Shown: piece by piece, positions 30,156 through 64,000 of the stretch
Layout: each line of letters begins with the position of its first letter
Numbering within the stretch: position 1 is the stretch's first letter
Assembly: GCA_050273025.1 (NCBI GenBank)
Contig: CP158635.1
Coordinates: 6,076,001-6,140,000, forward strand
Source of the DNA: Cenococcum geophilum
Taxonomy: Eukaryota
Length of the DNA: 64,000 nt
Reading direction: 5' to 3'
The notes under the pieces: generated by a model
Databases searched by the model: none
The model's input: only the letters and a program-made list of their open reading frames with translations
What the model was told of the DNA's origin: nothing
Position numbers and translations under genes: made by a program

Positions 30156-30454
30156 TATAACAGTACTAGAGTGCGTTACCTACTAAGTTCTGCTATATTC
30201 TGCCACCTGTTATATTATCGCATACTACTAGCGCCTTAACGGCTCGCGCTACTTATTTATTTATACCAGCCCTAGCGACCCCCTTTCCTTCTCCTTAGCT
30301 TAGTATCTTCATTAAATAGCAATCTACAAGCTTTGGTTTAAAGGCATATATGCAAGCCGTTATATTATACTAAGCTCTCCTTACATTGCCTAGAAAGGCC
30401 TTAATTAATATCCCACTCTAAAAAGAAACTTCGTCTACAATAACGCGTTAATAT

Positions 30455-30770
30455 TATAACGGAATTCCCCAAAAGGTACATATTAGATAAGATAGAAGGT
30501 CTTATCTATATTCTATTTACGTCCTAGAAGACATAGTTAGACAGATAAGGGGTAAAGGGTTTTACTAGCATCTTAGAAGGATTATATAGGGAGCTAGTTC
30601 TCCTCTAGAGAAGAACTAGTGATTAGTCTCTAAATAAAAGAGGTTAGAAAGCATTTATCCTTTATTACGTGAAGATCGTTCTACCTTAACTTATCTTCTA
30701 CTTACCCATAACTCTTATTCTATACTATTAATTAGATAATTATACGTCTTAGTTAAACTGGCCTTTTATA
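30455..30770 (+). repeat. 5' LTR of element A
   Basis: Direct repeat of 37798-38116. Termini TAT..ATA are consistent with RIP-mutated TGT..ACA. Confidence 0.9.
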
Positions 30771-33700
30771 ATTCTAATTGCTTATAATCCTTTACAGAAG
30801 GAACGTACGGCTATTAATTAACGATAACGGGCTATACCTTCTTACCCCCTAAAACGACGCCCCTACCGTAAAAGGCTTAGAGAGTCTCCCTAGAGGAGCG
30901 CATTCCCTCTTCCTATAAAGAAGCTATAGCTAGTTTATCTAACTTTGCGAGACCCTTAGGAACAATTACCACTAGGGAGTTATTAGAGCGGTCGCTATAT
31001 AAGACCCTATAAAAAATAAAGGAGTTAGAGATATAATTAAGATAAGTATATTAAGACTACTAAGAATAACTATAAGGACAATTAGGGGAAGTATAGATAC
31101 CCTAGACACAAAGCAGGCTTAAAGGGGCAACGCTATACTACGCTATAACGTTAGAAAAACCTAGATTCCGTATAAAAGAACCTAATAAGTATAATAGTAA
31201 TAGTCTCCAAAACTATAATTATTTTATCCGTTAATATAAAACTAAGTTTCAGCTAGATCTAAAACGTTACTCTAATAAGTATAATTAGACACTAATTGCT
31301 TCTACCTTCTTACGTAGCACTATTAAGAGTTTATAGATACGCTATAAGAAGAAACTTACTATACCCCTTAAATTTAGCGAACTTAAGTCCTAGTTAGTTA
31401 ATTAGGTCTAAGACCCTACTAGTTAAGGGATAGATTATAACCGGCGATACCATAACGCTAAATAGCGAGAAGGCTAGAGTGTAGTCCAGTTTATAAACTA
31501 CTTAGAAGAACTAGAAGACAATATACCCTACTTAGACCTATAGAATAACACTATATAACTTTACTAGCTGCTTACTAAGTTACAACCTAAGATTTAATAG
31601 GCTATATAGAAAAAGGGCGAAATTCCTACCTTTTAAGAAAAGCTTATCTCTAAAGCTACTTGGATTAAAAATACTAAAAGAGACTATTTAAGTAAGTAAA
31701 AGAAATAAGACGCTAATAATAAAGAGTATAGGACTAAACCTAGCTTTAATAATAGGGGTAGATTCCAACCTAACTACTCTATAGAAGAATAACGCAAGCA
31801 GGCTTTAAAGCCCTAGAGTAACGCTAGTTAGCCTTAGAATAATAATAGGTAAAAACCTAATCTAAACAAGTAGAACTAAGAGTTATGCGTTTATTATAAC
31901 TACGGCAAAAGGGGCTATATAAAGCGCTTTTACCAGTAAAAGAAATAAGAGTTAAATTAATTAGGAAAAGAGAGAGCCTAGTAGATCTTTACTCCCTTAT
32001 ACTAAGCTAGTAAAAGAAAGAGGGAGTAAGCTACCGTATAGTTATTCATATCTCTATTTAAGTTAATAATAAATAGGTAATATAAAACTGCCTTATAAAC
32101 AGCGGCGCGACCATAGGGTTTATTTCTTAATTACTAGTAAAAGAATTGGATTTGGACCTTAGCGGCTTATAGGTGCGCACCATTTAAAGCATTAAAGGCC
32201 ACCGGATTCCATATTACGGGGAATAGGCTTTTTTTTATAGCCAGCTAGGATCGCAATAATCTATAGAATACGCAGGAGATACACTTCTATGCTATAGAAA
32301 TTAAGGGGTATAACCTTATTTTAGGATACCTATAGCTTCGCCAAGTTAATCTAGACATTAATTGGCCTTTAGCCTTATATTAATATCAGAAGTCTTAACC
32401 GCGCATTAGAGTTAAAGATTAAAAGACTTTCTTAAACTATATATAAGAAGAAGGGTGGGTATATACTATATATGCCACTCTTAACACCAAAAACGGGGAT
32501 ATAGGATATTTATTTTTAGATATCTAGCTATATATAGTTAAGGAACTAGAGATTTTACGGGAATATATAGACTTAGAGGATATTTCTAATAAAAAGGCTG
32601 CATAAACCTTACCTAACCCCATATTAGTTAAGCATAAAATAGATATAGGGGATAAACAACCTCCTTTTAAACTACTATATAACCTATTAGAAAATAAGCT
32701 AGCGGTATTACGTTAATATATAGTAAACAATCTTTAAAAAGAATAGATTTGGCCCTTTATAAGCCTAGTAGGGGTACTAATTATATTTATACCTAAGAAG
32801 GATAAAACCCTTTACCTTTATATTAACTATTAGGCGCTAAACAAGATTACTATAAAAAATTGCTACCCATTACCCTTAATAGAGGAGCTTATTAATAGGC
32901 TATTAGGCGTAAAAATATTTACAAAATTAGATCTAAAAGATGTATACTATTAAATTTAGATTAAGGCCGGTAATAAGTAGAAAACGGCGTTCTAAATATA
33001 GTACGGCTACTTTAAGTACCTAGTAATGCTATTTAGGCTTACTAACATACTAATAATATTTTAGGCCTATATTAATAAGGTATTATTAGGCCTATTAAAC
33101 ACGATATATATAGTCTACTCTAATAACTACAAAGTATATACGTATTATATATAAATAGTACTAGAAAGACTACGGAAATACAAACTCTATATAAACCTAA
33201 AAAAGTGCATATTTTATACTACTAGCATTAATTTTCTAGGCTTTATTGTTAGTGTTAATGGAGTATTAATAGAGAAAAGTCAAGTGGACGCTATTAGGGA
33301 ATAGCCCTACCCTATAATATTTAGAGAAATATAGGTTTTTTTAGGCACGGCGAACTTCTACCAAACGTTTATTATTTATTATTTATAAGTAATACTCCTA
33401 ATTACCAATCTACTAAAAGGATCTAAGAATAGTAAGAAGTTAGGACCCTTTATATTTAGGGAAGCTGCTAAATAGGCTATAGACTAGTTAAAGGATTTAT
33501 TTATATTGGCGCCTATTTTAATATACTTCTGCTAGAAGCTATATATATACCTTAAAATAGATATATCTAGCTTCGCCCTAGAGGCAATTATATCTTAATT
33601 AAAAGACGGAGAATAATATCCTATAGCGTTTTAGTTAAGGAAAATAACCCCTATAAAACAGTATTATATAATATATAACTAGAAGCTACTCGTAATAGTT

Positions 33701-36387
33701 ATAGTAATAAAGTACTAGTAATATTATTATATAGAAAGCAATTACCCTATTAAAGTCCTTACAGACTATAACAACCTAAAATACTTTATAACTATAAAGG
33801 TATTAAGCGGTTAATAAGCTAGATAGGCAAAGGCACTATTATAGTACGACTTTAAAATTATATACCGCTTAGAAAAAACAAATCCCGCTAATAGGTTATT
33901 AAGATATCTAGATTATAAAATAGGAAGGATCTAGGACAGTATAGGGGAAATAATCCCTATATTGCAAAATTTGCTTAGAAAGAAAGAAGACTCTTTTTCT
34001 AGAACTATAGAATTTTGTAATAAGGCAGAGGTCCTAATAATATAACTATAAAACGCTATAATTATAGAGCTGTAGGATATAGTTATAGATTAGGTTATAG
34101 GCCAAGCAGACGTTATAAAGTTAGTATACCCTAGAATTAGCGAGAATTCTATAGAATGTGCTAGGGGTATCGCGGCACCTTTAACTTAACGGCGTATTAG
34201 CTGCAAGTATCCAGATCTAAGGGGAATAGGTAAGATGCCTATCCGCAGCGTAGCATACTATATAATAGTAAGAGAATCTACTAGCACTAATAGTTTAAAA
34301 CGTCTTATGCTACGCCTTATATTTATAATAGTAGTAGGTAAAATAGAAGCAAGCGATCTACACAAAACCTTTTTAGATCTTCTCCTTTAAATATAATAGA
34401 GGGACGCCTTTATTTCTAGAGAGAGGTAAAAAGATATAGTGGAGACTAACTTAGCCAGAGTTACTAAAAAGCTATAGTAGCAAGACTAAAAGGGTCTATT
34501 ATGCTTTAAGGGTGCTATATATGTTCTAAAGGACTAAGCGGTTTAAGATAAAATTCTAAAAGTCTTCTACGACGACCCTTTTAGGGGTCACTATAGTGCT
34601 AATAGAACCCTTAAGGCCGTTTAAAGGAAATACTTTTAGGATAAAATATTTAAAGAGGTTAAGGACTATATATTAAGATATAATATATACTAAAGGGTAT
34701 AGATATCTAGATATTGCCCCTATAGCGAGTTATTAGTGCTTCTTATTCCATAGGGACCTATATTAAAATTAATAATAGATTTTATAATAAGCTTACCCCC
34801 TACTAAAATAAGAACGGGAGAGGTTGCTAACACTATCCTAGTAATTATTAACAGATATACAAAGTTTTTAAGGTACTTTACTGTTATAATAACAATCACG
34901 GCAGTAGAATTGGTAGACCTATTTTTAAAACGGTAGCTCTTATTTAGTATATTAAGGGGAATCGTGTCTAATAAAGGTACTGTATTTAACAGCGTATTCT
35001 AGTCTTTATTTTATCTCTTATTAAAAATATAGTAAAGGATAAGCACTACCTTTTATCCGTAAACAGATGGGCTAATAAAGCGTCTAAATGCGATATTTAG
35101 AACACTACCTCCGCTACTATATTAATTATTAATATGATAATTAGACATTATAGTTGGCTTTAGTGCAATATATATATAATATAAGCATCTATAGTAGTAT
35201 AAAAATAACCCCTTATAAAGTATTATTTAGGGCAAAAGTAAATAACCTATAGAACGTTAAGGACATTATTCCTAAAAGGGAGGTACTAGTAGCGTCTAAG
35301 AGAATTAAGCAAATAAGAATTCGTAGAAAAGAACTTAAAAAGCACTTACTAGACGCCTAGGCCATATAAAAAAGGTACTATAATAAAAAATATATACTAA
35401 AAGAATTTAAGATAGGAGACGAAGTCTTACTATTTATAAAAAATATCTAAATAAAACGTATTAAGAAGAAGCTAGATTACTAGTAGCTCGGACCCTTTAA
35501 AATAGTTAGGAAAACTAAAGGAAATTAAGCCTATAAATTAGAATTGCTAAAATTATACCTAATATATTCCATATTTTATATTTCCTTACTAAAGCTATAT
35601 TAGAGAAGAGATGGTGCGGAACTACTACTACTTAGCGAAATTAATAGGGAACTAGAATAGAATATAGAAGATATTTTAGACTAAAGATAGCGCCAAAAAA
35701 GCGCGAATTTTTAGTTTATTAGGAAGAATACTCTTAGGTATATAATAGTTAGGAACCTAAGAAGTACCTTTAGCCAAAATATAATACGGTAATTAAAACC
35801 TTCCTAAGGACTAAAGGTAAAGATTCGGCAATAGTTCTAGATATGCTACAGATAAAATAATAGGGAAGACCCCGTAAATTAAAACTATAAGGTTAAGTAT
35901 AGGCATTAAGAACGGAAACGTTTCGCTATTATAATAGGGATCCTAAAACCCTATAAGGGGAAGCCTATAGGATCTATAGGAGAACTACTAAGGATACTGT
36001 CTAAAGAAGACGCTATTTAAGAATAAGTAGTAGTAATATAAGAAAAGGCCTTAGGGATTTAGAAGGACCCCCTAGGGATAAAAAGAGAGTATTTGGTCTA
36101 GCACTAGAGATACGTAGTAGAGTTAATAGTACGAAGAGGAGTAAAAGGACAGCCTATAAAGAATTAAAAAAAAATTAAAATTATAAAGCACCTATAGAAA
36201 TATTACTCGTTTATTATATACGGGGATTATAGTAGTGCACTGCCTTTATATAAATTGTTACTAAAGCTTAGAGTAAAGGCATCCCTAAAGTATAAAGTTA
36301 ATTCCTAATAATAGGGCATCCTTAAGGCACCTAAGAAGCACTATATAAAGCTATTCTATAAGAAGAAGGAAAGAGCTAGATAATAAC

Positions 36388-37270
36388 TTAAATACTAGTA
36401 GCAGTAACAGGAGCCTCCTCTTCTATCTTAACATTATTATTAACGATATTATTAGCACCTCTATCCCTAGAAGCATTAGCACTTCTACTAATACTCTTCT
36501 TAAAATAATAAGAACTAGAAGGACTAGCACAGGCAGAAGACTAGCGAGGAGAACGTTTATCTAGACTTTTATCGCTATCCTTAGTATCCCTAGGCTTTAA
36601 ATTAGTATCTAAGTAGGGATCCAAAAGCCGTTAGCTAAGAGAATTAGTATAGTTCCTAAACGTATTACTAGAGAAACTTACCTAGCTAAAAAGGCCCGCG
36701 TAAGAGTATAAATTTTATTATTTATAAGGGTAAGCTGCTTGCATATACGCTCTTAGATACTATATATCCGAAATTATTACGTCTCTATAGTAGTGGAAAC
36801 CCTTATTAAATTAAAAAGCCTATAAGTAAGGGTAGATACCTTCTATCCCTATTTATCGCTATTTAGATATAGGTGGAAATCCTAAATAGCGTAATAGAGC
36901 TTATAAGTCTTACGCGTATAAACAGTAGGGATCTAATATAATTAGTGAAATTTAGAATAGGACAGAATAGAAGATACTAGAACGTAGGTTTTTCTCCTAC
37001 TATAGTAATAGAAATACTTAGATTTATTTTTATTAGAGCGAGGTATCTTATAGGTATAAGACGGGTCCAGCGTAAGCGCGTAAACGCAATAACGGCAGCA
37101 CTTCAGAGAGATTACTATAGGAGTAACAGAGGTAGTCTAGGGTAGCCCTAAAATAACACCGCTACCGGTCTAGGGACGCGCAGTATAACCTTAAGCTATT
37201 ATAAGAGAATACTATGGGAAGTTAGTATTATTAACGAAGATAAAATAGGGATCCTATTACTTATAGACAT
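36388..37270 (-). pseudogene. RIP-inactivated 4-exon antisense accessory gene of element A; ~245 aa with a Zn2Cys6-like cysteine cluster
   Basis: Exons 37270-37265, 37211-36978, 36932-36682 and 36634-36388. The 53-, 45- and 47-nt introns have CTAAC/CTAAT branch sites and TAG acceptors. Spliced length is 738 nt, in frame. Confidence 0.65.
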
Positions 37271-37797
37271 GTTATAAAAAGAGAATAAAGTAGTTATAAA
37301 AGAATAGCTAAAGATACGGAAGCTAAAAGTGGAGATATAGAGAAAATAGTCTACTAAAAGATAAGATAAATAGTGTTATTAATAAAAAGACGCGTAAGAG
37401 GCGACAGCTTATAAACTAAAAGGAAATTAAAATAAAGATGTTATTATTAGAACCCATTTTAGGTAAATGGGGATAATAGCTTATAGACGCGTTATATAGG
37501 ATAACCTCCGGATTAACTTATAACAAACTCTTATAATAAGAAAGGTGAATCCCATCCAATTATTATTATTATTATTATTTTAGTTCTATTATAAAGGCAT
37601 TATAAGGAGCTATAGTAGAAGAAGAGTAGAGGAACTAAAGATAAAGTAAGGTTTTATACTAGTAAAGAACTAGCTATAAGCCGTATTATAGAGTACCTTT
37701 CCACTAAGAATTTTCCCTAGTAGTTTTAGCCGGAACTCTATAAAAGTTTAGTAGAGGCAAAGTTTTAGAGGACTAAAACCCTTAAAGGGGAGGCAAT

Positions 37798-38116
37798 TAT
37801 AACGGAATTCCCTAAAAGGTACATATTAGATAAGATAGAAGGAGGTCTTATCTATATTCCATCTACGTCTTAAAAGATATAGTTAGACAGATAAGGGGTA
37901 AAGGGTTTTGCTAGCGTTTTAAAAGGATTATATAGGGAGCTAGTTCTCCTCTAAAGAAGAACTAGCGATTAGTCTCTAAATAGAAGAGGTTAGAAAGCAT
38001 TTATCCTTTATTACGTAAAGATCGTTCTACCTTAACTTATCTTCTACTTACCCGTAACTCTTATTCTACACTATTAATTAGATAATTATACGTTCTGGTT
38101 AAACTGGCCTTTTATA
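37798..38116 (+). repeat. 3' LTR of element A
   Basis: Direct repeat of 30455-30770 with a 3-bp insertion, preceded by the purine tract AAAGGGGAGG. Confidence 0.9.
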
Positions 38117-41100
38117 AATATATTATACTTAGACACTAAATAACACTATACTACCTAGGAAGGCCTTAATAATATCTACTTTATAAGCTAGACAGGACTA
38201 GACCTATATCCCTAGAATTAAAACTAAAGCGTATAATACTAATAAACCCTAGGAAGTTAATAATAGCACCTAAAATACGCTTATTTAAGAGAGCTATTTC
38301 TACCTAAGAGGAACCTAAGATCCAATTAGGATTAGAAATTAAAGATAATAATAATATTATAGACGTATATAAGTAGATTCGCGCCCTTATAGCTAGCTAA
38401 AAAGCCAATTATCTTAAAGTAAGAAATATATAAGAGACCCTATAAGAGATCCTAGAAAGCCTTACAGCCCTATAAAATAGTCTAGCTTCCCTTTTTTAAA
38501 GCCCTAGCTACCCTATCTACTCTACTAAATACAATATACTAGGGAGTATAGATATAGTAATAAAGTAATTAAAGTCCGTTAAGCTTTTTAACCCCTAACC
38601 TCTATCTAATAGGATAGATTCTACCTTTAAAAATTAGAGGATCTAAGTACGAGGAAAACTCCGCGTTAACTATAACTATTTCCTCTCTAAAGAAGCTAAG
38701 ATACTTTACCTCTTTAGTTAAACTATAGGAGATGCCTAACATTACCTTTAAGCTAAATTTAAGGACGACTCCCCTATCTGCTTTATATCCGTTAGTAAAA
38801 TACTATAGTATTTAGCTGCTATATATATAAACCTAAACAAAGTATAAGATACGCGTTATAACTATAATAGCTTAATAATAAAGTTAAACTAATCCTTTAC
38901 TAAGTTCTAGACTTAATTCTTATACCTAATAGAAGAAGGCTAGGTTCCCCTTAAGAACTACCGTTTAGACCTATATAATAAGCTAACGGTTTAACTATAA
39001 GAGAAGATTACGATAGCCTTAAACAACCTACTAACCTACTAAAGACTTATAGCCTAATATTTATTGCTAGAATTAGAACTAAAGCAAATTAATACCCATT
39101 CTAATTAATAAAAAAAGGCTTATAATAGTTAAAACTCGTTAACTATACTTATAGGAGCTAAAGTAGGAAGACAAGCTCTAGCGGCTCTTGTATTAAAAGT
39201 GGTTATATCTATATACTAGCGAGCCTCGCCTAACTAGCTATATACTATACTATTAACTAGTACTTATTACAATAACCTAATTAACCCTACCTTAGCTATA
39301 TACTATAACTATAATAAAGAGGATTACTTTACCTTATCTTGCCTAGAGCTAAAGGATATAGGCGATATTAAAAAGATAAAGAAAGGAGAAATATCTAATA
39401 AGTTAGGAAAAAAAGAACCCTAGGGAAAACCCCCTCCCTAAAAGTACCCTATCGATCTTAAAGAGATTAATTTTAGTTAGTTAATAGGTAGAAAGTATTT
39501 TACGGTTCTATATATAGTATCTTAAAATAGATATAGAGTTAATATAACTGCCCTTATTAATACTAGAGCAAATAGCTTCGCCTTTATAAATACTACCTAT
39601 ATAAATAATATTACTAAGTTTCTAAATATAAAAGCTACTTAATTAAAGAAGCCTATTAAAAGGCTATAACGGCCAAGCTAGTTAGCCGGTTTCCTATGTT
39701 TTAAAATTATATATTGCTCTTAACAGATAACGCTAATATAGTATTTCTTTTTGTATCCTAGACTTAGGGTCTTATAATATAATCCTTAGCCAAAAATAGA
39801 TGTCCTATTTTAATATTTAGCTAAATATATAATAAAGATAATTTATCTAGCCGGAGGATAGACTGAAAGTTCCCTCCTTTATTAGGGAAATCCGAACTAA
39901 CTGTAAAATACTAGCCATAAGGGCTAACCCTATTTATTAGTAGGACGTCTAGGCCTATAACCTAGCCTTTACCTAAAAAAAACCCGCTGCGAAGCTAGAA
40001 AGAACTCTATATTAATAAAGATACTCTCTTAAAGTGCTATATTTAAAGAGGACTTTATATATAGTAGCGGGACAGATAGTAATATAAATAACGTCTAAAT
40101 TATACAGATCTAACCGGTATAGAAAAGAACGTATTAATAGGATATAAGGGATAACCTCTAAAAGATGCGATAGAAGCTAAAAGGAGTAATAATAATACTA
40201 ATACCCTAAAAGCCCCTAAAGTTATATACGCCCCTATTATTATATAACCCCCCTATAGTAAATATCGCTATAATTAGCGCTATAGCGTTCCACTTTAATA
40301 TATACTAGAAGGATAATAAGGTCTTTATAATAAGCTTATATAAAATTAACTAAATTATTAATAATAGGGAAAAAGAGCTAGCTAAAGAAACTAATAAGGA
40401 ACTAGTTAAACGCCTTCTTTTTACTATCTATATAAACTATAAGGATGTATTTTTAAAAGTAGCTTTAGATAAGTTACCCCCTTACTAGGTATATAATTAT
40501 AAGATTTAATTAAAAGCTAATAACTCGCTAGGCTATAGCCCCCTCTACTAATAATTAATAGATAAGCTAAAAGTAATGAAGTAGTACTTAATTAATAACC
40601 TAGATAAAGGGTTTATTAAGCTAAGTTAAGCCCCTTTTACTTCCCTAATCCTATTTATAAAAAAACTTAATAGAGGTTTTTATTTTTATATTAATTATTA
40701 AAAGCTATATACTATTACTTAAAAGAATTAGTATCCTATTTCTTTAATTAATAAAACCCTTATATATTTAAGTCGGGTAAAGATCTTTACTAAACTTAAT
40801 ATACGTTAAGCTTTCTACCAAATTAGGATAGACCCTATTAGTTATATAAGGTAATATTAAGTATTTACAAGTTATAGGCAGTATGATGGTTGTTAGTTAA
40901 TGTTCTTCTTAGAATAAGGAAGGGCGAGGAGCGTAAGACTCCTCGCCACGCTAGTGCCGCGGCGATACGTGACGACCGCTTACCTTATTCCCGACACTGG
41001 CAACTCTTCTTTTATAGTTGCCATCTATATACAAATACTGCTTAACTAGCGTAGTGTTACAGGACCACCCCGTAATACCTTATATACGCCCACTAATTAA

Positions 41101-41148
41101 GCCCAGTTATAAGACTGTAATTTGCCGCAATCTACTATAATCTGCTAT

Positions 41149-41352
41149 ATTCTGCTAGGCTATAGAATTCTACTAAATTCTGCTAAGCTATAGACTTCTG
41201 CCAAATTCTGCTTAGTTATAGACTTCTACTAAATTCTACTAAGCTATAGACTTCTACCAAATTCTGCTAAGCTATAGACTTCTGCCAAATTCTACTAAGC
41301 TATAGGATTTTACAAAATTCTGCTAGGCTATAGAATTTTACTAAATTCTACT
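41149..41352. repeat. 28-bp tandem array (~7 units) in the 3' UTR of Copia C
   Basis: Unit ATTCTGCTAAGCTATAGACTTCTGCCAA repeated with transition-type variation. Confidence 0.85.
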
Positions 41353-44300
41353 AGAACCGTAATAGCGTATAGTATATACCTGTTAACTATTGCTATTATA
41401 ATATATATCTTGCTCCTACTCCCTTTTAACCTAACCTTTAATTTATATACGTAGAGTATTTATATTAATAAATATCTCTAGAGCCTTATTCGGGTTTACC
41501 TTTATTATTACATTTACTAAATTATCTTAGCTGTTAATCCATTAAATCTTAAAGAGTTTTTGCCGTTTATAGGACTATTAAAGTGCTATAATATTAATTA
41601 TAAGGCGCTTCTTTTTTGTAGTACTAAGCTTAACTAAACACTTATAAAGGGAGTATAAGTCGATATATATAATTGTAGGGATAACGGGAATTTTAAGTCG
41701 ATCTGTAATTATCTTTAGGGTAGTTCCAATTGTAATTGCTATATTAACTCCGCTAACTATTCTATATATCTCTAACGCTAAAACGCTTTAAGTAACGCGC
41801 TTACTTTTAGTTAAGCTCTAATAAATAAGGTTGCCGTAGATTGTGAAGTTATTCTCTCTAATAAATTCGTTTGTAATAATAATCTTATATCCTAGCTAGG
41901 AGCTAAAATCTTTATTATTTATAAACAATCTATTAATAAATATAAAGAGCTTAGCGGTAGGAAGATTAATAGGTATATAGAGTAGTCCCTAAACTAAATA
42001 GTTTATTTGCTAGAAAAGACGTTTATTTAGGGTAAGAACGTTATCCTTAGTTAGTTTCTAATGTTAGGTAGCAATAGAGAGATTAAATAAAGCCTTAAGT
42101 TAACAGATAGAAGTAATATAAGCTTCGCGAGCGCGTTGCTCCACATATTCTTGCTTTAGAGAATTAATATTAATAACGTTAATCTTCTTGCCTTAACCCT
42201 TCTAGCGTAGAGCAATAGAATCCTTGTTTAGGGAGAGGATATATTTATTAAAAAGTAATAGTGTTATTAAATTAAGCTTTTCCTTTAGCTTTGCTATAAG
42301 ATTTACCTTATTAGCTTATCTTCTTTAAGAGCTAAGAATTGGTTGTCTTCTAAGATAATTATATTATTAGTTTATATGCCGATAATTCTAAATAGAGTTC
42401 CTATGGTTATAATAAGGAAGTAGGGGTTAAATATAGAAGTAGTTATTAAAAGCTTCTCTTTGTAGTGCTTACTATAGGTAGCCCACTAATAAGTTCCTAC
42501 CTCTGCAATTCTATATAATGGATTAAGTATAACTATAATTGTATCTTCGGGATATTAGTAGCGAATTTACCCTAAAAGGTATGCTAATATTAAGCGCTAA
42601 AGGTGTATCTCTAATTAGGTATAGGCCTAAGTAATATCTTATAAATAAACCGCCATTCTATTTTTTATTAAGGAGGAAGTTAGCGTAATAATAACTCGCT
42701 AACTAGCTCGTTAAATTATAGGAGATTATATAAAAATTACCTCCTTACTATTGTTATTATAGCCTTAAATTCTTAAATAGGGCGTTAGTAGCTTTGCCCT
42801 TAATCTTATTAACTATTCTTAACTTAAAGATACGAACTCTATTAAACTTAGTAGGGTTATACTTCTTAAATTTAAAGACTCCTTTTATAATAAGACCATT
42901 AATCTCCTACTTATTAGATGCTTAAAAAGGAGCTCCTAAAGTTATAATACGGCCTTCCTTTTAGAGCTATTTTGCGAGTTTAAAGTTATCCTTCTCCTTA
43001 GCTATTATAAAGGCCATTAATAACTTAACTCTATTTTTAATACTGGTAATAAATTGCTCTTTAAACTTAATAAAATATTAGTAATTTTATAATCCCTTTA
43101 GGCAACCTTTACCGCGTTATAGTTACGGCGTATCTACTACAATTATATTAAAATTGTAGTCGCCTTCTAAAGCACGTTAATTGTAGTTCTCCTCTAGGGT
43201 ATCTTCTAGGGCATCCTATAAAGGCTTAATAACAGTTAAATAGAATTAAGTGGGTCCGTAAGGCATCTAAATAGTATAAGTTTAACCATTAATTATAATA
43301 AGTTAATGTGGGCCTAACTATCCTCCCTTTTTACGCTATATATATACCTTAGACTAGAGTAGCAGATTAAGCGTAGTTAAGGTATTTAGGCCATTTCTTA
43401 TTCTAAGTACGTTGTTAACCTAGCGTATAGCGTAGAGACGTTATACCTCCTTTATTATCTTATAAATAGCCTTAGCTTATTATATAATAGAGGGAGATAG
43501 TAGAGAATTATTAGTTATTTAAGGGTAGGCGCTAAAGACTAGTAATATAGGTATAAGTTTATCTGGGCTAGCGGAATTATTAATAGCTTTAACAGCTATT
43601 TATAAGGTAAGTTTTTTACTAGCGTCCTTTAGTTCCAAAGAGATAATCTTATATACGTGGCGTAATGGTATATAATATCGCTCCACTTTTCTAATACTAT
43701 TATATGCCTTAATGGGGACTTTCTTAACCTTAATTACTATTACCTTTATCTATTATTAAAACTTTATAGATAAGAAGTTCTTTCCTATATTATAGACAAT
43801 TTAATTAGGGGGTCCTAGGTAGACATTAATCTAGCATAATTAAAGGGTATTCTATATATTCTTAGCTAATATATCCTTTAATAATTGTGCGGCTTAAAAG
43901 GAGGTTAAAAAGTTAATAACTTAGAGTACTAGCTTACCGCTAAGATATATAACATTAACAATAATATAGAAGTTAAAGTTGTAGTTATCTTTAAGGGTAA
44001 ACTTAAATTGGCTAGGGGACTTCTGGTTTATTTAGTAGTAATAGTAGTACTTTATAAGATGCTTAATTGCCTTAACCTTAACTTTATAGCCTGCTTACTA
44101 AAGAACCCTAAGCAATTAGTAAACGGATGGGTAGCTAAAACAATAGTGTAGTTAACGTAATTCTAACTTAGTTAAGTGGCTTTAAGTAACGCTCTTTTCT
44201 GGTTACTAAAGGAGCAATTAAGGGTAACCCTACTTACGTATAACAGGCATCTAATTATCTCCCTACATAAGCATATTTTTAAGGTTATTAAGCTTAACGC

Positions 44301-45866: not shown

Positions 45867-48800
45867 TGTAAGGTGAGGATATAGATAGGAAGTCCAATAA
45901 TAGAACAATAGATATATTGTATAGACAGAGACGAATCCTTAAGGGAGAAGGAGAAGTCTAAGGTGCGAGGTAAGGGGTTTCTATAGGCACGTGCAGCGCA
46001 CGTGCCTCACAGACGAGTCGCCTGCGGGTCGCCTGTACCTCGCAGCTATATAGCTATCTACTTAGGTTTTACCTAACAATGCCCCCCCCTTTAAAAAGGG
46101 TCGTCCCCGATCCTTTATATGCTTAGGCCTCGATAAAACCCTATAAAAACCTTTAGAAGAAAAAAATTAGAAGGGAAAGAGCGTCCTAATTTTGCGTATA
46201 GAGAGACAGGTAGTACACTTACGCGGCGTAAAGATATTAAGGAACTTTAACCGCCGGTTAAAGTTATCTGATTAGTTAGATTTAGCTTACTAAAACTTCC
46301 CTACATTTCACCAAGCCAATAGCGATTTTATATACCCGGTATGGAAATTCCTAATTAGTCTATTTAATAGGTAGAGCCAGTAGCTTAATACTATCGCCCG
46401 AATTTGGTAGATATATTCCAAAGGTTTACTTATATAGGTAGGTCGCTGGTACCTTACGGGTAGGTCGTAGGTTATTCACATACAGCTAGATTTAGGACGG
46501 TAAGGCTATATACCCGTTAGATCCGCCACTAACCCTACTTTAGCCTTACACTATACTAGCGTAGCGCTGTGTATACTTTGTGGGTAGGTTATAGGTTACT
46601 TACATACGGCTAGATTTAGGACAATAAGGCTGTATGCCCGTTAAATCCGCTGCTAACCTATGCTTTAGCCTTACGCGTTATCTGTATAGCATATATATAG
46701 AATAGTATATAAGTTATCTATATAGGTTACTACCAATAGGTTACTAGTAGGTCGTAGACCCTAGTTAAAGGACCCTAGTTATGGACGGGTATAGGATAAT
46801 ATATGAGTCGTTAGTATAGGTCACTATTAGTAGGTCACTAGTAGGTTAAAGACTTTAGTTAAAGGACCTCGGTTATAGACAGACCTATCTAGTATAAGTT
46901 ATTAGTATAGGTCACTACTAGTAGGTTACTAGCAGGTTATAAACCCCGGTTAAAGGACCCTAGTCTTAGACGAACTATAAAGTATATAGCGGTGCGATTT
47001 AAGCGTTAGCAGGTATTGTAGTACCTAAGTATTTACGGAGGTCCTTGGTAAGGCCAAACCTTATTATACCTTAAAAGTCCTTAAGTGTTGCCAGCAGAAA
47101 CTTGCCCCTAGGTAGTCACATATAGAGCGTATAAAGGCGTCCCTTATACTCTATAGATGGACTAGTAACTTAGGGGTATTCCATAAAGGCCGTTTCGGCT
47201 AAGGTAGCTACTACTACCACTTGCCATAGCACGAGGCTCTGCGTAAAGCTAGTGCTAGTGAGGTAACGTATAATACATAGGTTACTTATAGGGTTATTAT
47301 AGGGGACCATCGCCTGGGCTAAGGGTCTAGCGCTATAGGTTGGTCGAAGTCTTAGTAAGAATGGCAGGATACTCTGGTCCGCTAGCACTAGGTTATTAGT
47401 ATAGTAGCACCAAGACCGCCCACAAGGTCTATAACCCGCAACTTTTATATAGCATTAAGAGTTAATTTAGCACCTATTATTATATTAAGCATATAGGCGG
47501 ACTTTACCCTAGGGTATATCCATCGCAATATATACCACAATGCGTTCCCTTTCTCCCCATCTAGCGTTAGGTCACGATGCGCCTACGTAAGGTATATATT
47601 TAGGGGTATACGGTATCCGAATCTTTAGGCTTATATATAGGTTATTAGTATAGGTCACTACTAGCGGGTTACCAGCGGGTTATAAACCCCAGTTAAAGGA
47701 CCCTAATTACGGACGGACCTGTCTGCTAATATACGTCATCGGTACAGGTTACTACTAGCAGGTCACTAGCGGGTTAAAGGACCCTGGTTAAAGGACCCCG
47801 GTTATAGACAGACCTATCTAGTATAAGTTATTAGTGCAGATTACTACTAGTAGGTCACTAGCGGGTCAAAGGACCCTAGTTAAAGGACCCTAGTTATAGA
47901 CGGACCTGCTACCTAACAGTTAGGCATTATTTATAGCGGTTTACTACTAGTGTTCTTTATAATTACTATCTACGTTCTTCTTATAATGCGTAGGCGTATC
48001 GCTAGCGTTTGGGAGGTCCTCTAAGCCATCTAGCTGTTAAGTAGTCTCCCCTAAAGCTTAGTTAGGAAAGCGTCGCCTTTTTAGGGTTCCGTTCTCTAAA
48101 CCTAACCCTATAGAGCCTATACTACGACCACACTTCGGGCGCAAAAATCTACTATTACTAGCTACACAGTCTTCCGCGAGCTTTATAGTGTTAAGTAGTT
48201 GCTCTATATAGCAGATTTCTACAAAAAGGTCCTTAGTGGTTTTCACCCGTATAATAAAGTTCTGGCGAAAGAGCTTTGCCTATAGGTAAGTTAGAAGATA
48301 TAAGAACTAAAAGTCTACCTACTAATTAGGGTTAATAAAAGGGGTATATAAGAAGAGGTCCTCTAAGCTACGCATATAGGCTAAGAAGGTGTTAAACTTT
48401 TAGTTCTCCTTTATTACAGTCGTATAGTATACAGTAGCATTTTTAAAGTGTCTTACTATAGGGTTCTTAATCTAGTCTTAAACCATAGTCTTAAGTTCGT
48501 CCCATAGTAGAGGACCCTTATCTTTGGCGCCCAGGCGGTAATATACCAGTTAGGCGACTATCTTCTCTTTTATAAGACCTTTAATGGCCTAGCGCGTACG
48601 TCGCTTGCAGTCATAGTCAGCGTTATTAATCTTAAATTAATTCTCAATTGCGGTAATCCATTAGTTAAACTTCTGTTAAGTAGTGCCACCAATATCAGGC
48701 GGTAACTTCTTAACTAGGGCGTCAAGATTCGTTCGTCGTATACGTTCGCTACGCAACTTATACTCTTCACTAGAGGGGTGATAGGAGGTTAAATCGATAA

Positions 48801-49347: not shown

Positions 49348-52300
49348 TTATATAGTTCTCCTCTAAACTTCTTCTCTTCGTTTAAATATACCTTTATTAA
49401 ATTTGTAACTTCTTATAATAAAGGCTTACCGGTTAGCTAAAGTAGAGAAGTTAGAGGCGGCGAAGGTGAGGGAAGAGTACCTCTAGGTAGGAAAGCACCT
49501 CTAGGTAGGAGAGCACCTTTAGGTAAAAGATTAGCGTTTTAGGGATTTTAATACGAATTAAAGTTGCCTTTTAAAGAATATAGGTTAGTTTTAGGTTTCC
49601 GTAGTTAACGTATAATTTTAGCTTCCATCTATACCGGTTTTTCTATACTAATAATAACGGCCTAAATATTACTAGCGACTAGGTTACCGTTCTTAGTAAC
49701 GTATACCCTATTTCTATAAAGGAAGTCTTAAAAATCTTAAATAATATTAACATTTCTAAGTGCCTAGGTGTCGGCAGTTTATCCTACAAAATCCTTCTTA
49801 AAATATTCCTATAGTTATAAATCGGTATAGTATCTATCTTAGTAGAATAGAATATAGTATAGGAGAAAACTATTAACTTATTTTACAGTATAAGTTATTA
49901 TATTAAAGGTAAATTCGTCCTAATCTTTATTAATAAGTTTTGCGTATGTAGCTACCCCTAGTAGTAAGGAGTCTTTCCAGTTATTTAGAGTAGCTATGTT
50001 TTTAGAGGAAGGGAAGTATTATTAGGGTAGGGGTTGTCGTTTAGTACGCGTTCGTGACGTATATTTACGATTATAGGGCTTAGGACTAGTTCTAGCCTTA
50101 AATCGCGAAGACTCGTAAAGCGTGTTATTCTGCGTAATAGACGCAAGAATCTGTAATTTAGGAAAGGCTTAGGACCAGTTCTAGCCTTTAAATCCTTAAA
50201 TTCGTAGAAGAGTTCTATTTAAGGTTTAGGACCAGTTCTAACCTTAAAAGACAGCTTCCTTTAGCACGAGTAGCACTGGTATAGTGGCTTATCTCTTCTT
50301 AGTGGAATACCTAGCTATTCTATAGTATAACAGTAAAGTTAACTACTAATTAGTGTTGGTTATATAAGGTGATATCACGTATCTACAAGTTGTAGGCAGT
50401 ATGATGGTTGTTGGTTGATGTTCTTAGAATGAGGAAGGGCGAGGAGCGTAAGACTCCTCGCTACGCTAGTGCCGCGGCGACACGTAACGACCGCTTGCCT
50501 CATTCCCGACAGACCCTATATTTAAAGATTTAATAATATTCTATACCTATTATAGTTTCTATAAATATAAAGTTCTTCCTTTTAGACTAATAAACGGACT
50601 AGCTATATACTAAAGGTATATAAATAACGTTCTCTTTAATTACCTTAATAAATTCTACACAGTATACCTAGATAATATTCTTATATACTTAAACAATAAA
50701 CTTAAGTATTAAGTTTATATTAAGGAGGTCCTAAAGAGACTACAGAGTATAGGCTTATAAGTTAATATTAAGAAATATAAGTTTAGGGTAAAACGTATAA
50801 AATACCTTAGGTTTATTATAACTATAGAAGGAATTAAGGTTAACCCTAAGAAGGTAAAGGCAATCTGTAACTAGAAGCCCCCTTATATAGTAAAAAGGAT
50901 CTAGTCCTTCCTTAGCTTTTATAATTTCTACTACTAATTTATCCGCAATTATAAAATTATAGTAAAGCCCCTTATACGCCTAACTAAAAAGGATACGCCT
51001 TTTATATTTAATAATAGCTATATAGGAGCCTTTAAAGAGATGAAGAATCGGCTTATCTCTTCCCTAATTCTTTATTACTATAGCCTAAGCCTTAAATTAA
51101 TATTAAAAACAAACGCTTCTAATAGGGTTATAGCGGGAATCCTATTATAGCTATACCTAAACAGTAAATAGTACCCTATTACCTTCTTCTTAAAAATAAT
51201 AAAGAAATGCTAGCTATTATCTAATTGCTATCTTAATAGCGTATAGAGCTTAAAGGCACAAACTTTTAGATTAAGATATATATAGATTATAAAGCCCTAG
51301 AGTACTTTATAACTATAAAGCAGCTTACTAAATAATAAGCCCGCTAGGCTAAAATACTCTTCTAGTTCTTCTTTATAATTATATATTGTTTTAGTAAGTA
51401 AAACTCTAAAGCTAATATATTAACCTAAAGGAAACAAGATATATGACCTTAGGATAAGCTAAAGACCTAATACCGGACGCGCGCGCTCCTCTATCCTAAA
51501 TAGCTTAATCTATAGATCTTTAAAGAACTAAACTCTAAATAAAATAACTTAGCACCTATAGAGGGAGAAGTCTTAGATAAATTAATAGGACTAATTAACT
51601 ATATCCTAAATGCAAACTATATAGCTAACTCCCTAAAGGCCCTCCATAACTAAGCCATAAAAGATAACCCTAATTTAGAAATAGAAGAAGGACTACTTTT
51701 ATACTAAAAATGGCTTATAGTTCCGGATATTAATAACCTATAAATAGAGCTAATCTATAAAGCCCACTGCTAAGTCTCTATGGTATACCCTAGTTAAGAT
51801 AAGACCTACTAACTACTAACGCCCCGTTACTACTAGCGAGGACTTCTATCTAATATAGATTGATTTATTAGAAACTGCCACGCCTATAGACGCGTAAATA
51901 CCCCTAAGGATTAAACACCTAGGTAGTTATAACTGCTACTAGTTCTAGAACGCCCTTAGCAATATATTATAATAGACTTTAAGTTGTTTCTAAAGGACGC
52001 CTACGGCCATAATACGGCCTTTATAGTAATTAACCAATTATATAAGTAATCTATCTCCCTCCCTTATTTTAAGACCACAACTATAAAGGATATGGCCCAC
52101 CTCTATATTAATAACATCTATTAATTCTACAGCGCCCCTAAATTAATTATCTCTAACTATAGTCCCTAGTTTATATTAGATTTCTAAAACAAACTCTACT
52201 ATATCCTTAGGATTAAGATTAAGCTCTCTACTATATTTTACCCTTAGATTAACGGCTAAACCAAGATTATAAACTAGTACCTTAACTAGCGACTATATCC

Positions 52301-55300: not shown

Positions 55301-56117
55301 GCAATAGGAGCTAAAAGGAGTAATAATAACGCTAATATCTTAAAAGCCCCTAAGGTTATATACGCCCCTATTGTTATATAACCCCCTTATAGTAGATATT
55401 GCTATAATTAATGCTATAGCGTTCTACTTTAATATATACTAGAAAGATAATAAGGTCTTTATAATAAGCCTATATAAGATTAACCAAATTATTAATAATA
55501 GGGAAGAAAGGCTAGCTAAGGAAACTAACAAGGAACTAGTTAAACGCCTTTTCCCTACTATCTATATAAATTATAAGGAGGCATTCTCTAAAGCGGCCTT
55601 AGATAGGTTACCCCCTTACTAAATATATAATTATAAGATTTAATTAAAAGCCAATAACTTACTAGGCTATAGCCCCCTTTACTAATAATTAATAGATAAG
55701 CTAAAAGTAATAAAGTAGTACTTAATTAATAACCTAAATAAAGGGGTTATTAAGCTAAGTTAAGCCCCTTTTACTTCCCCTATTTTATTTATAAAAAAGC
55801 TTAATAAAGGCCTTTATTTTTATACTAACTATTAAAAGCTAAACACTATTACTTAAAAGAATTAGTATTCTATTCCTTTAATTAATAAAACCCTTATATA
55901 TTTAAGCCGGGTAAAGATCTTTACCAAACTTAATATCTGCTAAGCTTTCTACCAAATTAGGATAGACCTTATATTTAAAGATTTAATAATATTCCGTACC
56001 TATTATAGGTTCTATAAATATAAAGTTCTTCCTTTTAGACTAATAAATAGACTGGCTATATATTAAAGGTTTATAAATAACGTTCTTTTTAATTACCTTA
56101 ATAAATTCTATACGGTA

Positions 56118-61122: not shown

Positions 61123-64000
61123 TGTAGGTAAATAAGAAGTCGACAACGTAATAATAACTAGTGGAGTAGTTGCCTAACAGATTAACTCTAATTGTATTCT
61201 AAGATTTACTATAAAGGAGAGAACTATCTAAGTAGGGACTGTGGTCCTTTAAATACACAACCGTACTCCTAAGAAATCCCCTTTATACGTAAGGTACGTG
61301 TTATACGTATTATACGTACGTTCCCTTTATACACTACGTACACTGTGTATAACATTATATGACCTTAGTTACCATTCCTTATTATATAGCTCTATTGGCT
61401 CTATTTTAAACCGTGTCTAAATTAACCAACTAGCTTCTTCTAACTCTTCTCTAAGTAGTTATAATATTGTACTTAAAGCGTCTGTAATACTATCTCCCTC
61501 CTCTCTATCTTCGTCCTTAAAGATTCTAAATATCTTTAAGTTATCTACTAGAGGTGTAATATCCATCTAATTAATTTAGTTAATATTGTTACTTATTATA
61601 CCTAAAGATTCTTCTTCTTCGTAAGCGCAACGTCGTGCTCGTACTATTGCTGTGATATTATCTCTTAGTAAGATTATGCTATCTCTATATTCTCGTTATT
61701 TAAAAGAGGGGTTAGTTTATATTACGTTGGTGAACCTATCTTTACGATAACCGTCCTCTTGCTTAAAGTACACTAAAGCGAATATTTATTCGTTCTATAA
61801 CGTTTACTTTATCTCTAATACTAAATATATATAGCCTATTACTCTTAATAGTCGTTTAGTTTCTTAGCTAATTTATCTTAAGGTCTTATATTTAATCTAC
61901 TACTACGCGGCTAGATAGTAAACTGTCTTAAGCCCTTATTAATCTAGAATATTTTTGTAATATAGAGCTAAAGGCCCTAAAGGCCTATATTGCGGCGTCT
62001 ACTTAGTTACTTTGTCTTAAGAAGGTTTATAAGAAGGTCTGTTTTAAAAAGTAAAAACTTATAAAATAAGGTTTATAGGAACTTAGCGATAAAAAAGTAG
62101 ATTCTCTTTTAGCTAAGAAGGAAATAGATCTAAGTAGTTTGGTAACTACTCTTCTTAGGTCCCCCTTAGGTAACTTATTTTTTAGTAATCCTTTTTTATT
62201 AATATTATCTTACCTAATCTCTTCTAATACTCCTATACCTTTCTTATAGTATTCTTTAAATTCTATAGTAGTTCCTAGGTAGTCTTAGTATAGCCTATCC
62301 ACTTAACCTTGTACTATATTTTATTGTTAATATCCTTATAACTAACGATCTTTAAAACTTACTATTTATCTTCTTCCTATCCTCTATATATGTCTACTTT
62401 ATAAACCAGTAGCTTAATATTCCTGTATACTAGCTCTAGCATTACAATATACTATATAGGGTAGATCTTTATTTTAGCTGGTAGGTTTAACTTAAACGTA
62501 ACCAGTAAAATTCTTTAGATAATTTTAAAAGGTCCTAGTCTAACATAGTCTAACTTCTTACTTAGTTATTAACTCTTAAAATTTTTGTATAGTAGCCACA
62601 CTTTATCTCCCTCTTTAATATCTGGTCCCTTAGATCTCTTAGCATTATAGTACTTTTTTATCCTCTCTTATACTTTCTTTATTAATTCTATAAGGTCTAT
62701 ATAAAGATTTATTAACGTCTTTATTCTTTCTTTAGCTATACTACTTATTTTCTTTACTTATTATAGTAATAATGATATTCTTAGCTTATATCCATAATTT
62801 GCCTTAAATAGTAATATACCTATTCCTTCTTATGGTGTTATATTATATATAAACTATATAACTAGTAATAGCGATACCCAATTATTCTATACATAATTGA
62901 TATAATGCCTTAAATACTGTTTTAGTGTCTAATTTAATCTTTTTATTTAACCGTCTATCTACGGATAATATGCGGTGGAAGTTACTGCCTAAACTCCTTA
63001 CTCTGCTAAAAATACTTTTTAAAATGCTGCTATAAATCTTAGATCTCTATCCGATATAATTTTACTTAGTGCTCTATATCTTATAAACACCTCCTTAATA
63101 TAGATTCTAGCGATATCCTCCGCTAAGATTTCTTTTATGCATGCTATAAAGTATCCCCACTTTATAAGCTTATCTACTATTACTAAAATTACGTTATAAT
63201 CTTATTTGGTAATAGGATCTCTTAACTTTAATAACTTAATAATAAAGTCCTATAATATGACCTTCTATAGTCTTTCTAGTATTTTAATAGGTTATAGCCC
63301 TCTATATAGCTTATGCCTTATTAATTTATTCCTTTAGTAATTTAGACACTCTTTTATTACTTTTCTTATAATATTTTAAATTTTGTTAATAATGTATTCT
63401 TTCTAAAGTCTTAATACTAAGCCTATCGCTCTATTATGTCCTTATATTATTCCCTTATAGAAATCTTCTATAAAATGCTCTACTATGCTTTTTAGGATAT
63501 ACTTTACTTCTTAATTTTCGTATATATCCATTTATAGATCTTCTAGCTATACCTTTAGAATTCTTTATACCTAAAAGCTCTTTAGTGTCTTATAGACTTT
63601 TTCTAGTTCGTTATCCTCTTAAGTTGCTATTAGCTTGGGGTGATTATATCTAATCTATCCGTCCTTATCTCTGCGTAGCATTACTCCTAATAGCTTTTTA
63701 TTATTCTATAGTTTAGCCTTTCTACTAAGTGCATCTACTCTTATGTTTTTAGTTCCCTTAGTATACTAAATCTTAAAATAGTATTTTATAAGCATCTCCA
63801 CCTATCTAACTTGTCTTTAATTAAGTTCTTTTATTATTAGGAACCCTATTAGGTTCTTATAATCTATCTTAACTATAAATAGTTTCTCTACGCCTTATAA
63901 GAATGCTCTCTATTTCTTAAGTGCTGTAATTATACCTAATAACTCCTTATTATAGACGTCATAGTTTAACTCTAGTGGTGTTATCTTCTGGCTATAGTAT
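61123..64000 (-). mobile_element. 3' half of Gypsy/chromovirus element G, apparently inserted into the LINE; continues beyond the window
   Basis: Minus-strand relics NIRVDALSRK (RNase H end), STAYYP*IDG (STAYHPQTDGQ integrase) and YKVKWIGYTKTT*EL (chromodomain). A putative LTR at 61123-61354 (TGT..ACA) is single-copy here, so its boundaries are unconfirmed. Confidence 0.75.

Follow-up and report, generated by a model that had tools for sequence, protein, structure and literature searches.

The antisense strand of element A holds a candidate spliced gene

The window analysed here (the whole 64,000-nt stretch, positions 6,076,001–6,140,000 of contig CP158635.1, assembly GCA_050273025.1, of Cenococcum geophilum) is AT-rich in its right half, with a GC content of 0.30–0.33 from ~28 kb onward, and this half contains element A, a 7.7-kb Ty3/Gypsy element on the + strand. 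A pair of long terminal repeats (LTRs), the order reverse transcriptase (RT)–RNase H–integrase, a chromodomain-type tail and a polypurine tract (AAAGGGGAGG, at 37785–37794 on the + strand, just before the 3′ LTR) place it among the chromoviruses, and each of its six frames carries 212–279 stops per 2559 codons, the signature of heavy repeat-induced point mutation (RIP). An earlier examination of the window from its letters alone (the original prediction) had proposed that the ~1.9 kb between pol and the 3′ LTR hides a four-exon minus-strand gene for a Zn2Cys6-like protein, disrupted by RIP. The size of this spacer was correct, pol ending at TAG 35819 or TAA 35888 and the 3′ LTR starting at ~37796. 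From a comparison of 29 copies of the element we consider it probable, for the explanation taken as a whole, that the family did carry a genuine antisense gene on the strand opposite gag–pol, with three coding exons rather than four (Table 1).

Scanning metagenome contigs with a RIP-degenerate 48-mer from exon 2 of the original prediction yielded 28 loci on long contigs, which hold ~30 independent RIP-mutated copies, all AT-rich and 78–87% identical to element A; since the exon-2 pattern chose these loci, copies without exon 2 could not appear among them. The full 7.7 kb aligned in one piece for five loci (L002, L010, L012, L015 and L028), the remaining ones being truncated or interrupted, and our alignment over 35400–37850 comprised 32 pieces and the window, with two L026 rows removed as duplicates of L025. 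Among the loci so picked, the segment, which the original prediction expected to recur in the family, was colinear in every copy covering the region (23 complete copies and fragments from the 28 loci). The copies are independent, nearest neighbours being 82–91% identical, and form two subfamilies, B consisting of the window, L007, L015, L016 and L027. Transversions number only 1–3 per ~800 nt within subfamily A, which points to a recent burst of near-identical elements followed by RIP, and 28–31 per ~800 nt between the subfamilies (L023 comparisons). An intact antisense gene is found in none of the 23 complete copies, each having 6–14 internal stops, and 207 of these 210 stops are TAA or TAG, the RIP type that had been predicted.

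Structure of the proposed antisense gene

The consensus of the aligned copies was built from the majority base, with a majority T changed to C if at least three copies had C, and a majority A changed to G if at least three had G, and this RIP correction raised the GC content from 0.334 to 0.485. On the minus strand of the corrected consensus, three stretches are free of stops (37211–36945, 36932–36681 and 36643–36391) and correspond to exons 2, 3 and 4 of the original prediction. When two introns are removed, a continuous run of 240 codons without a stop extends from the first ATG; the pol tail of the same consensus still holds 4–5 uncorrected stops.

As a description of the window, the original prediction was exact in every coordinate and motif: ATG TCT at 37270–37265, a 53-nt intron (ATAAGT..CATAG), a 234-nt exon with a Cys/Tyr-rich peptide, a 45-nt intron (GTATCT..TAG), a 251-nt exon, a 47-nt intron (GTAAGT..TAG), a 247-nt exon and TAA at 36390–36388, 738 nt when joined. 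The comparison of 29 copies bore out exons 2–4, introns 2 and 3 and the stop codon. The two-codon first exon had to be rejected, because neither its ATG nor the donor of intron 1 is conserved: position 37270 begins an ATG in 1 of 29 copies, namely the window, with GCG in 10 and ATA in 9, and the donor that had been taken for a RIP-altered GT has A as its first base in 28 of 29. Thus, of what a RIP-corrected consensus had been expected to restore, stop-free exons 2–4, six cysteines and the GT donors of introns 2 and 3 were recovered, but exon 1 and its donor were not.

Without that exon, the start falls on the codon at 37199–37197, the earliest ATG of the consensus once its last upstream stop is passed; 14 of 29 copies read ATG there and another 14 ATA, as the window does. 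At the other end, the TAA at 36390–36388 is kept in 25 of 26 copies. The 45-nt intron shows GTATTT in 21, CTAAC in 18 and TTAG in 19 of 28 copies, the rest having TTAA, a RIP change, at the acceptor, and the signals of the 46–47-nt intron are GTAAGT in 24, CTAAC in 22 and TTAG in 24 of 26. Within the CTAAC of the 45-nt intron lies an in-frame TAA whose T is present in all copies, so that the antisense frame needs splicing. A further conserved TACTAAC..YATAG upstream of the start codon (Table 1) may be the acceptor of an intron in the 5′ untranslated region (UTR), for which no conserved matching GT donor was found in the 29 copies.

Table 1. Features of element A and of its antisense gene, with window coordinates.
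Feature	Position	Strand	Basis
5′ LTR	30453–30784	+	Direct repeat with 37796–38131, ~92% identical
pol remnant: RT, RNase H, integrase zinc-binding domain, SH3-like domain (~35415–35600), chromodomain-like tail; stop TAG 35819–35821	32790–35821	+	Pfam and copy alignment
Spacer from pol stop to antisense-gene stop; likely 3′ UTR and terminator region of the antisense gene	35822–36387		No codon periodicity (41, 36, 32); no indels between subfamilies
Antisense gene, last coding exon (Ser-rich, mixed-charge tail), stop TAA 36390–36388	36388–36634	−	Stop-free in consensus; in-frame 6-nt and 3-nt indels between subfamilies
Intron, 46–47 nt: GTAAGT..GCTAAC..TTAG	36635–36681	−	Copy-by-copy signals; 1-nt indel between subfamilies
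Antisense gene, middle coding exon (basic, predicted helical)	36682–36932	−	Stop-free in consensus; differences by codon position 21, 9, 27
Intron, 45 nt: GTATTT (GTATCT in window)..ACTAAC..TTAG	36933–36977	−	Copy-by-copy signals
Antisense gene, first coding exon: start codon 37199–37197, Ala/Pro/Gly-rich N-terminus, Cys-rich domain ~37103–36978	36978–37199	−	Consensus and copies; in-frame 6-nt indel between subfamilies
~600 bp upstream of antisense start, inside the element: putative promoter and 5′ UTR	37200–37795	−	Consensus; five 1-nt subfamily indels
Conserved TACTAAC..YATAG, 12 nt upstream of antisense start codon	37212–37227	−	CTAAC and YAG in most of 29 copies
3′ LTR	37796–38131	+	Direct repeat with 5′ LTR

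The predicted protein and its Cys cluster

Six cysteines had been predicted from Tyr codons of the window, and the consensus restores all six with exactly the predicted spacing, C-x2-C-x11-C-x11-C-x2-C-x6-C, together with one extra adjacent Cys (seven in total). In every natural copy two to six of the seven have been converted to Tyr. Nonetheless, TGY codons survive at the seven sites in 22/29, 17/29, 17/29, 3/29, 9/28, 3/28 and 9/28 copies respectively, and since each site is thus represented in natural sequences, the cluster is not an artefact of the correction rule. An ancestral Arg would instead have left Arg or His variants at these sites, as it did at two neighbouring Arg positions. The three copies that retain Cys52 are not each other's nearest relatives.

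The consensus protein as a whole (~240 residues) has an isoelectric point (pI) of 10.85, with 46 Lys and Arg against 20 Asp and Glu, and falls into four parts: a short disordered N-terminus, the Cys cluster with basic flanks, a basic, probably helical stretch of 83 residues from the middle exon, and a tail rich in Ser. This predicted layout, with a pI of 10.9, fits a nucleic-acid-binding protein. For the tail, the original prediction was right as to the Ser residues but not as to its acidity, Asp and Glu (13) being balanced by Lys and Arg (14) at a pI of 8.1.

Zn(II)2Cys6 clusters hold two Zn ions, recognize CGG-type DNA sites and usually dimerize through a following coiled coil; their canonical spacing is C-x2-C-x6-C-x5-12-C-x2-C-x6-8-C. 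Like these Gal4-type clusters (PF00172), the element A protein has six Cys, of which the second half (C-x11-C-x2-C-x6-C) lies within the canonical range, basic residues around the last three Cys, and a predicted helical region after them. It differs from them in the first loop (11 residues rather than 6), in the extra seventh Cys and in the lack of a Pfam match among its RIP-damaged natural copies. The Cys spacing is the predicted one but not the canonical pattern, which a regular expression did not find in the consensus, and the Zn2Cys6-like label can stand only as a tentative one. In the LTR consensus, CGG/CCG sites form just one everted pair, CCG-N19-CGG, which is uninformative.

Evidence for and against coding

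The strict intron motif (GTAAGT, CTAAC and YAG spanning 40–100 nt) occurs once on the two strands of 2.45 kb, at intron 3 and exactly at the frame change, compared to a mean of 0.05 in shuffled sequence, and the two occurrences of the relaxed motif in the spacer, against 0.63 on average in shuffles, fall on introns 2 and 3. Single-intron models of at least 150 open codons arose in 1 of 1000 dinucleotide shuffles; the observed value was 164, and the actual model joins three open reading frames (ORFs) by two introns. Nine indels distinguish the subfamilies over 35400–37850, the three in exons being of 6, 3 and 6 nt and the six in non-coding DNA all of 1 nt. Differences between subfamilies at codon positions 1, 2 and 3 number 56, 31 and 73, an order (3 > 1 > 2) that holds in each exon, and their phase shifts across the 46–47-nt intron as the spliced frame expects; 7 of 20 transversions are synonymous. 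The motif at the frame change, the rarity of such models in shuffles, the different indel lengths of exons and non-coding DNA, a periodicity phase that tracks the splice, the conserved TAA stop and a start codon that is ATG or ATA in 28 of 29 copies all argue against the notion that the segment was never a gene, its open frames being by-products of RIP correction and its intron motifs chance occurrences in AT-rich DNA, and we rate that notion very unlikely.

A number of observations do weigh against the antisense gene, and the first of them are also what speaks for chance frames. By removing TA dinucleotides, RIP correction opens every frame, and the consensus contains six other stop-free stretches of 83–112 codons, several of which lie opposite the proposed exons and overlap them. 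The window taken by itself gives a joined frame with 11 internal stops ahead of the terminal TAA, about half of the background stop density; with three frame changes chosen freely, such a roughly twofold deficit proves nothing. Moreover, the exons diverge between subfamilies by 19–24%, the same as introns and flanks (19–24%), and the pol tail, our positive control, lacks codon periodicity (19, 18, 20), so the periodicity test is limited in power. The donor GTATTT of the 45-nt intron is without the usual G at +5, and Cys52 and Cys67 are each backed by three copies.

Searches for relatives likewise count against the antisense gene, no homologue, Pfam family or confident fold having been found. 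The database searches used RIP-damaged natural sequences rather than the consensus, so zinc-cluster membership is still compatible with their outcome. Pfam Zn_clus (PF00172) did not match at E ≤ 10 in 21 natural copies, each of which has lost Cys to RIP, nor at E ≤ 0.01 in P0001 and P0002, two fragments from the databases; DUF3716 (PF12511), a Cys-rich domain of proteins associated with fungal transposons (PMC8232023), was likewise without a match at E ≤ 10 in the 21 RIP-damaged copies, and neither a zinc-finger family of any kind nor a bZIP family was among the Pfam matches of natural copies. PAN_3 and Phage_integr_3 gave only sub-threshold matches in natural copies, which we took as noise, and Pfam run on six frames of the window spacer gave no minus-strand match. 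A profile search with the antisense protein returned nothing from PDB at E ≤ 10, and one of 1.84 billion representative proteins returned four matches, all RIP-mutated fragments of the element A family and none from outside it; a word-index search among 5.8 billion proteins (E ≤ 1) again gave four fragments of this family. P0001 had no usable match in the ESM Atlas, and AlphaFold2 modelled natural copy L009 (21 rows) with a mean predicted local distance difference test score of 40.7, too low for use. When the consensus protein itself was compared by tblastn with the 28 loci and the window, it matched copies of the element A family only, with no diverged paralogue in other Gypsy families, and no Zn_clus or DUF3716 protein was present among the 38 long ORFs of the loci and nine of the window. 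In RNA run X21 (raw reads, ~12 in 100 of them read), 32 reads matched element A at 80% likeness, 25 of them less than 90% alike, with none in 35359–37446 and no splice joints, a null that is uninformative on the expression of a family dead in this genome.

Alternatively, the spacer could code in the sense direction, as an extension of pol or a sense ORF3, or act only as RNA or DNA, for example through an antisense non-coding regulatory transcript. In the consensus, no frame has fewer stops than that of pol, + frame 0 (27 in 817 codons), which is open at 35957–36292, 36392–36644 and 36981–37263, and the review text describes antisense non-coding regulation in other retrotransposons (PMC7264820). 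Against this, the pol stop TAG 35819 is present in 18 of 23 copies (AAA in 4, GAA in 1) and the next stop in frame, TAA 35888, in 23 of 23; TAA 35954 (21/24) and TAA 36293 (24/26) follow, and + frame 0 holds five stops across the exon-3 region. Given this conservation of stops across copies, we rejected an extension of pol through the spacer. The 112-codon Arg/Lys-rich + ORF that lies between the last two of these stops (35957–36292, in the pol frame of the corrected consensus) shows no periodicity (subfamily differences 22, 26, 24 by codon position) and no indels, and may have arisen through the RIP correction. Furthermore, splice signals, start and stop are meaningful on the minus strand only, and the shift in periodicity phase at the 46–47-nt intron excludes a continuous + strand frame as the source of the periodicity. 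Sense coding or a purely RNA or DNA function is thus, in our estimate, highly improbable. The pol stop itself (region 35819–35890) differs between subfamilies, and copies with AAA would read 23 more codons to TAA 35888, passing a GRPRK (AT-hook-like) motif.

A third explanation accepts the gene but denies it a role: a host gene or fragment, captured in antisense by the ancestor of the family, would have hitch-hiked through one burst without serving the element. The 1–3 transversions per ~800 nt in subfamily A speak for one recent burst and have little to say on long-term selection, conservation between subfamilies is no higher in the exons than in flanking non-coding DNA, and gene transduction by LTR elements is documented in the review (PMC7264820). 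On the other hand, the antisense gene is present in both subfamilies, which lie 28–31 transversions per ~800 nt apart (L023 comparisons); all three exonic indels that postdate their split preserve the frame, as against none of the six outside exons; the differences between subfamilies are biased by codon position; and no host paralogue was found in the window, the 28 loci or the protein libraries. The same review states that transduced genes occur in one or a few copies of a family, not in all (PMC7264820). We therefore regard a functionless captured gene as unlikely, though less so than the two explanations above.

Relation to known antisense genes

An antisense gene between pol and the 3′ LTR is an arrangement already in print, to which element A adds a variant, overturning nothing; the original prediction had cautioned that such extra ORFs were known, and they are indeed published for plant elements and for the fungal element Boty (PMC7264820). 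In plants, antisense additional ORFs (aORFs) in this position are described for Grande (gene23), RIRE2, Retand and PvRetro13 (PMC7264820), and those of Retand have a TRP28 domain with predicted DNA binding (PMC11963269). The antisense gene of element A (37199–36388, −, between the pol stop at 35819 and the LTR start at 37796) has the placement termed aORF-3R. As these sources describe them, the plant aORF-3R genes (maize Grande gene23, rice RIRE2, Silene Retand) share its position and orientation and occur in most copies of their families, a nuclear DNA-binding regulatory role has been proposed for them, and Grande gene23 has its own promoter upstream. They differ in belonging to non-chromovirus lineages, in their spacers of 3–6.5 kb and in having TRP28 or SMC domains, with no Cys cluster described there; the word 'intron' is absent from the main text on plant aORFs in both sources (PMC7264820, PMC11963269).

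A fungal case is Boty, an element of Botrytis cinerea and Sclerotinia sclerotiorum whose antisense gene, brtn (PMC7264820, also PMC4227169), has been placed in BcGypsy1 and is absent from the current B05.10 annotation (PMC8365987). By these accounts, Boty resembles element A as a fungal chromodomain-bearing Gypsy element with an extra opposite-strand gene between pol and 3′ LTR that is family-wide and missed by annotation; the two are likened by description only, not by comparison of sequences, and the element A profile matched nothing outside its own family. No printed description of an antisense gene with a Cys cluster in a fungal Gypsy element was found, in a search that left subscription journals mostly outside.

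A mechanistic analogue comes from human T-cell leukaemia virus type 1 (HTLV-1), whose HBZ is encoded by an antisense spliced retroviral gene transcribed from the 3′ LTR and is a bZIP factor. Both are antisense, intron-containing genes near the 3′ LTR for a small basic protein, in element A a predicted one of nuclear type. The element A protein has no bZIP domain, HTLV-1 is a vertebrate retrovirus, and no common ancestry is implied, the likeness being one of architecture.

Possible function of the antisense gene

The genomic RNA of element A would be the + strand, in which the minus-strand introns would not be recognized and would pass through reverse transcription; being the complementary strand, this RNA cannot be spliced at them, and antisense introns can therefore persist, a logic on which antisense-intron retrotransposition reporters also rely. 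The antisense gene would be transcribed towards pol, either from a promoter of its own in the ~600 bp beside the 3′ LTR or from the LTR, and its transcript spliced twice to yield a small basic zinc-binding protein that would act in the nucleus on the element, whether to activate, repress or shield it. Such a protein may have bound zinc and nucleic acid as an accessory regulator of the element, as proposed for plant antisense aORFs and known of HTLV-1 HBZ, before RIP killed the gene in all copies.

A bolder version, which we think doubtful though worth stating, is that a chromovirus lineage encodes from this spliced antisense gene a sequence-specific DNA-binding protein of the zinc-cluster type that binds the LTR or the host silencing machinery, a retrotransposon counterpart of HTLV-1 HBZ. 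If so, the protein would tune transcription or evade genome defence, and may have aided the very high copy number reached before RIP.

Annotations seldom include the accessory genes of LTR retrotransposons, and even the well-studied plant and Botrytis examples have no established function. Element A offers a fungal example with a clear gene model, in which two introns, start and stop are conserved over ~30 independent copies, and its distinctive Cys cluster and strong basic charge make the predicted protein a concrete, synthesizable candidate for an element-borne DNA-binding regulator. The combination of family-copy alignment with RIP correction can recover genes that are invisible to ORF finders and homology searches.

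Element A, its family and its genomic setting

With stops read as X, Pfam recognized RVT_1 (5.6e-12), RT_RNaseH (4.6e-11), Integrase_H2C2 (8.9e-05) and SH3_Tf2-1 (2e-08) in the pol of element A; RVT_1, RT_RNaseH/RT_RNaseH_2 and Integrase_H2C2 share one frame and the Tf2-type SH3 domain is in another. The W-rich chromodomain-like tail is visible in the consensus, with no Pfam chromo match. The LTR consensus is bounded by TG..CA and includes a TATATA motif.

The family is very abundant, as 23,412, 17,866 and 1,552 contig pieces from three DNA runs aligned to element A at 80% likeness, and in the three runs all 30 bins into which the element was divided are covered, spacer included; in run X1, transitions account for 1233 of 1294 differing places (95%). 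Contig depth is lowest in all three runs at 36925–37185, the Cys-domain exon, at about one-fifth of that in adjoining bins, reflecting either higher divergence or deletion variants in part of the family. Several X1 contigs skip 67–79 nt in or near this exon (36993–37073, 36996–37064 and 37142–37218). X1 contigs also connect the sequence to the left of the 5′ LTR with the end of the 3′ LTR (joint 30421/38122 and neighbours), skipping ~7.7 kb, or leave the 3′ LTR to re-enter the 5′ LTR, and together these resemble solo-LTR and tandem or nested forms. Two spacer copies, one of them truncated, lie 4.9 kb apart in L025 (3080–3127 and 8001–8048, on the same contig as L026), so that the family inserts into or beside itself.

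Within the window the spacer has no second copy, the repeats of element A being the LTR pair and distant pol matches (58–64%) to other Gypsy elements. These other RIP-mutated Gypsy-type elements, at 40554–40829, 51196–51422, 55688–56083 and 62522–62977, are 58–64% identical to the RT/integrase regions of element A, and tblastn of the consensus protein gave no match in them. The GC-normal left half (3660–27808) contains ordinary fungal host genes, among them those for a GDP-mannose pyrophosphorylase-like nucleotidyl transferase, a 2OG-Fe(II) oxygenase, a DUF1349 protein, the NADH dehydrogenase 30-kDa subunit, an Ank-RCC1-BTB protein and ATG13. In the AT-rich region, 41113–41381 and 46450–46971 hold a tandem array of a 28-nt unit (~7 overlapping registers) and direct repeats spaced 91–94 nt and 124 nt apart.

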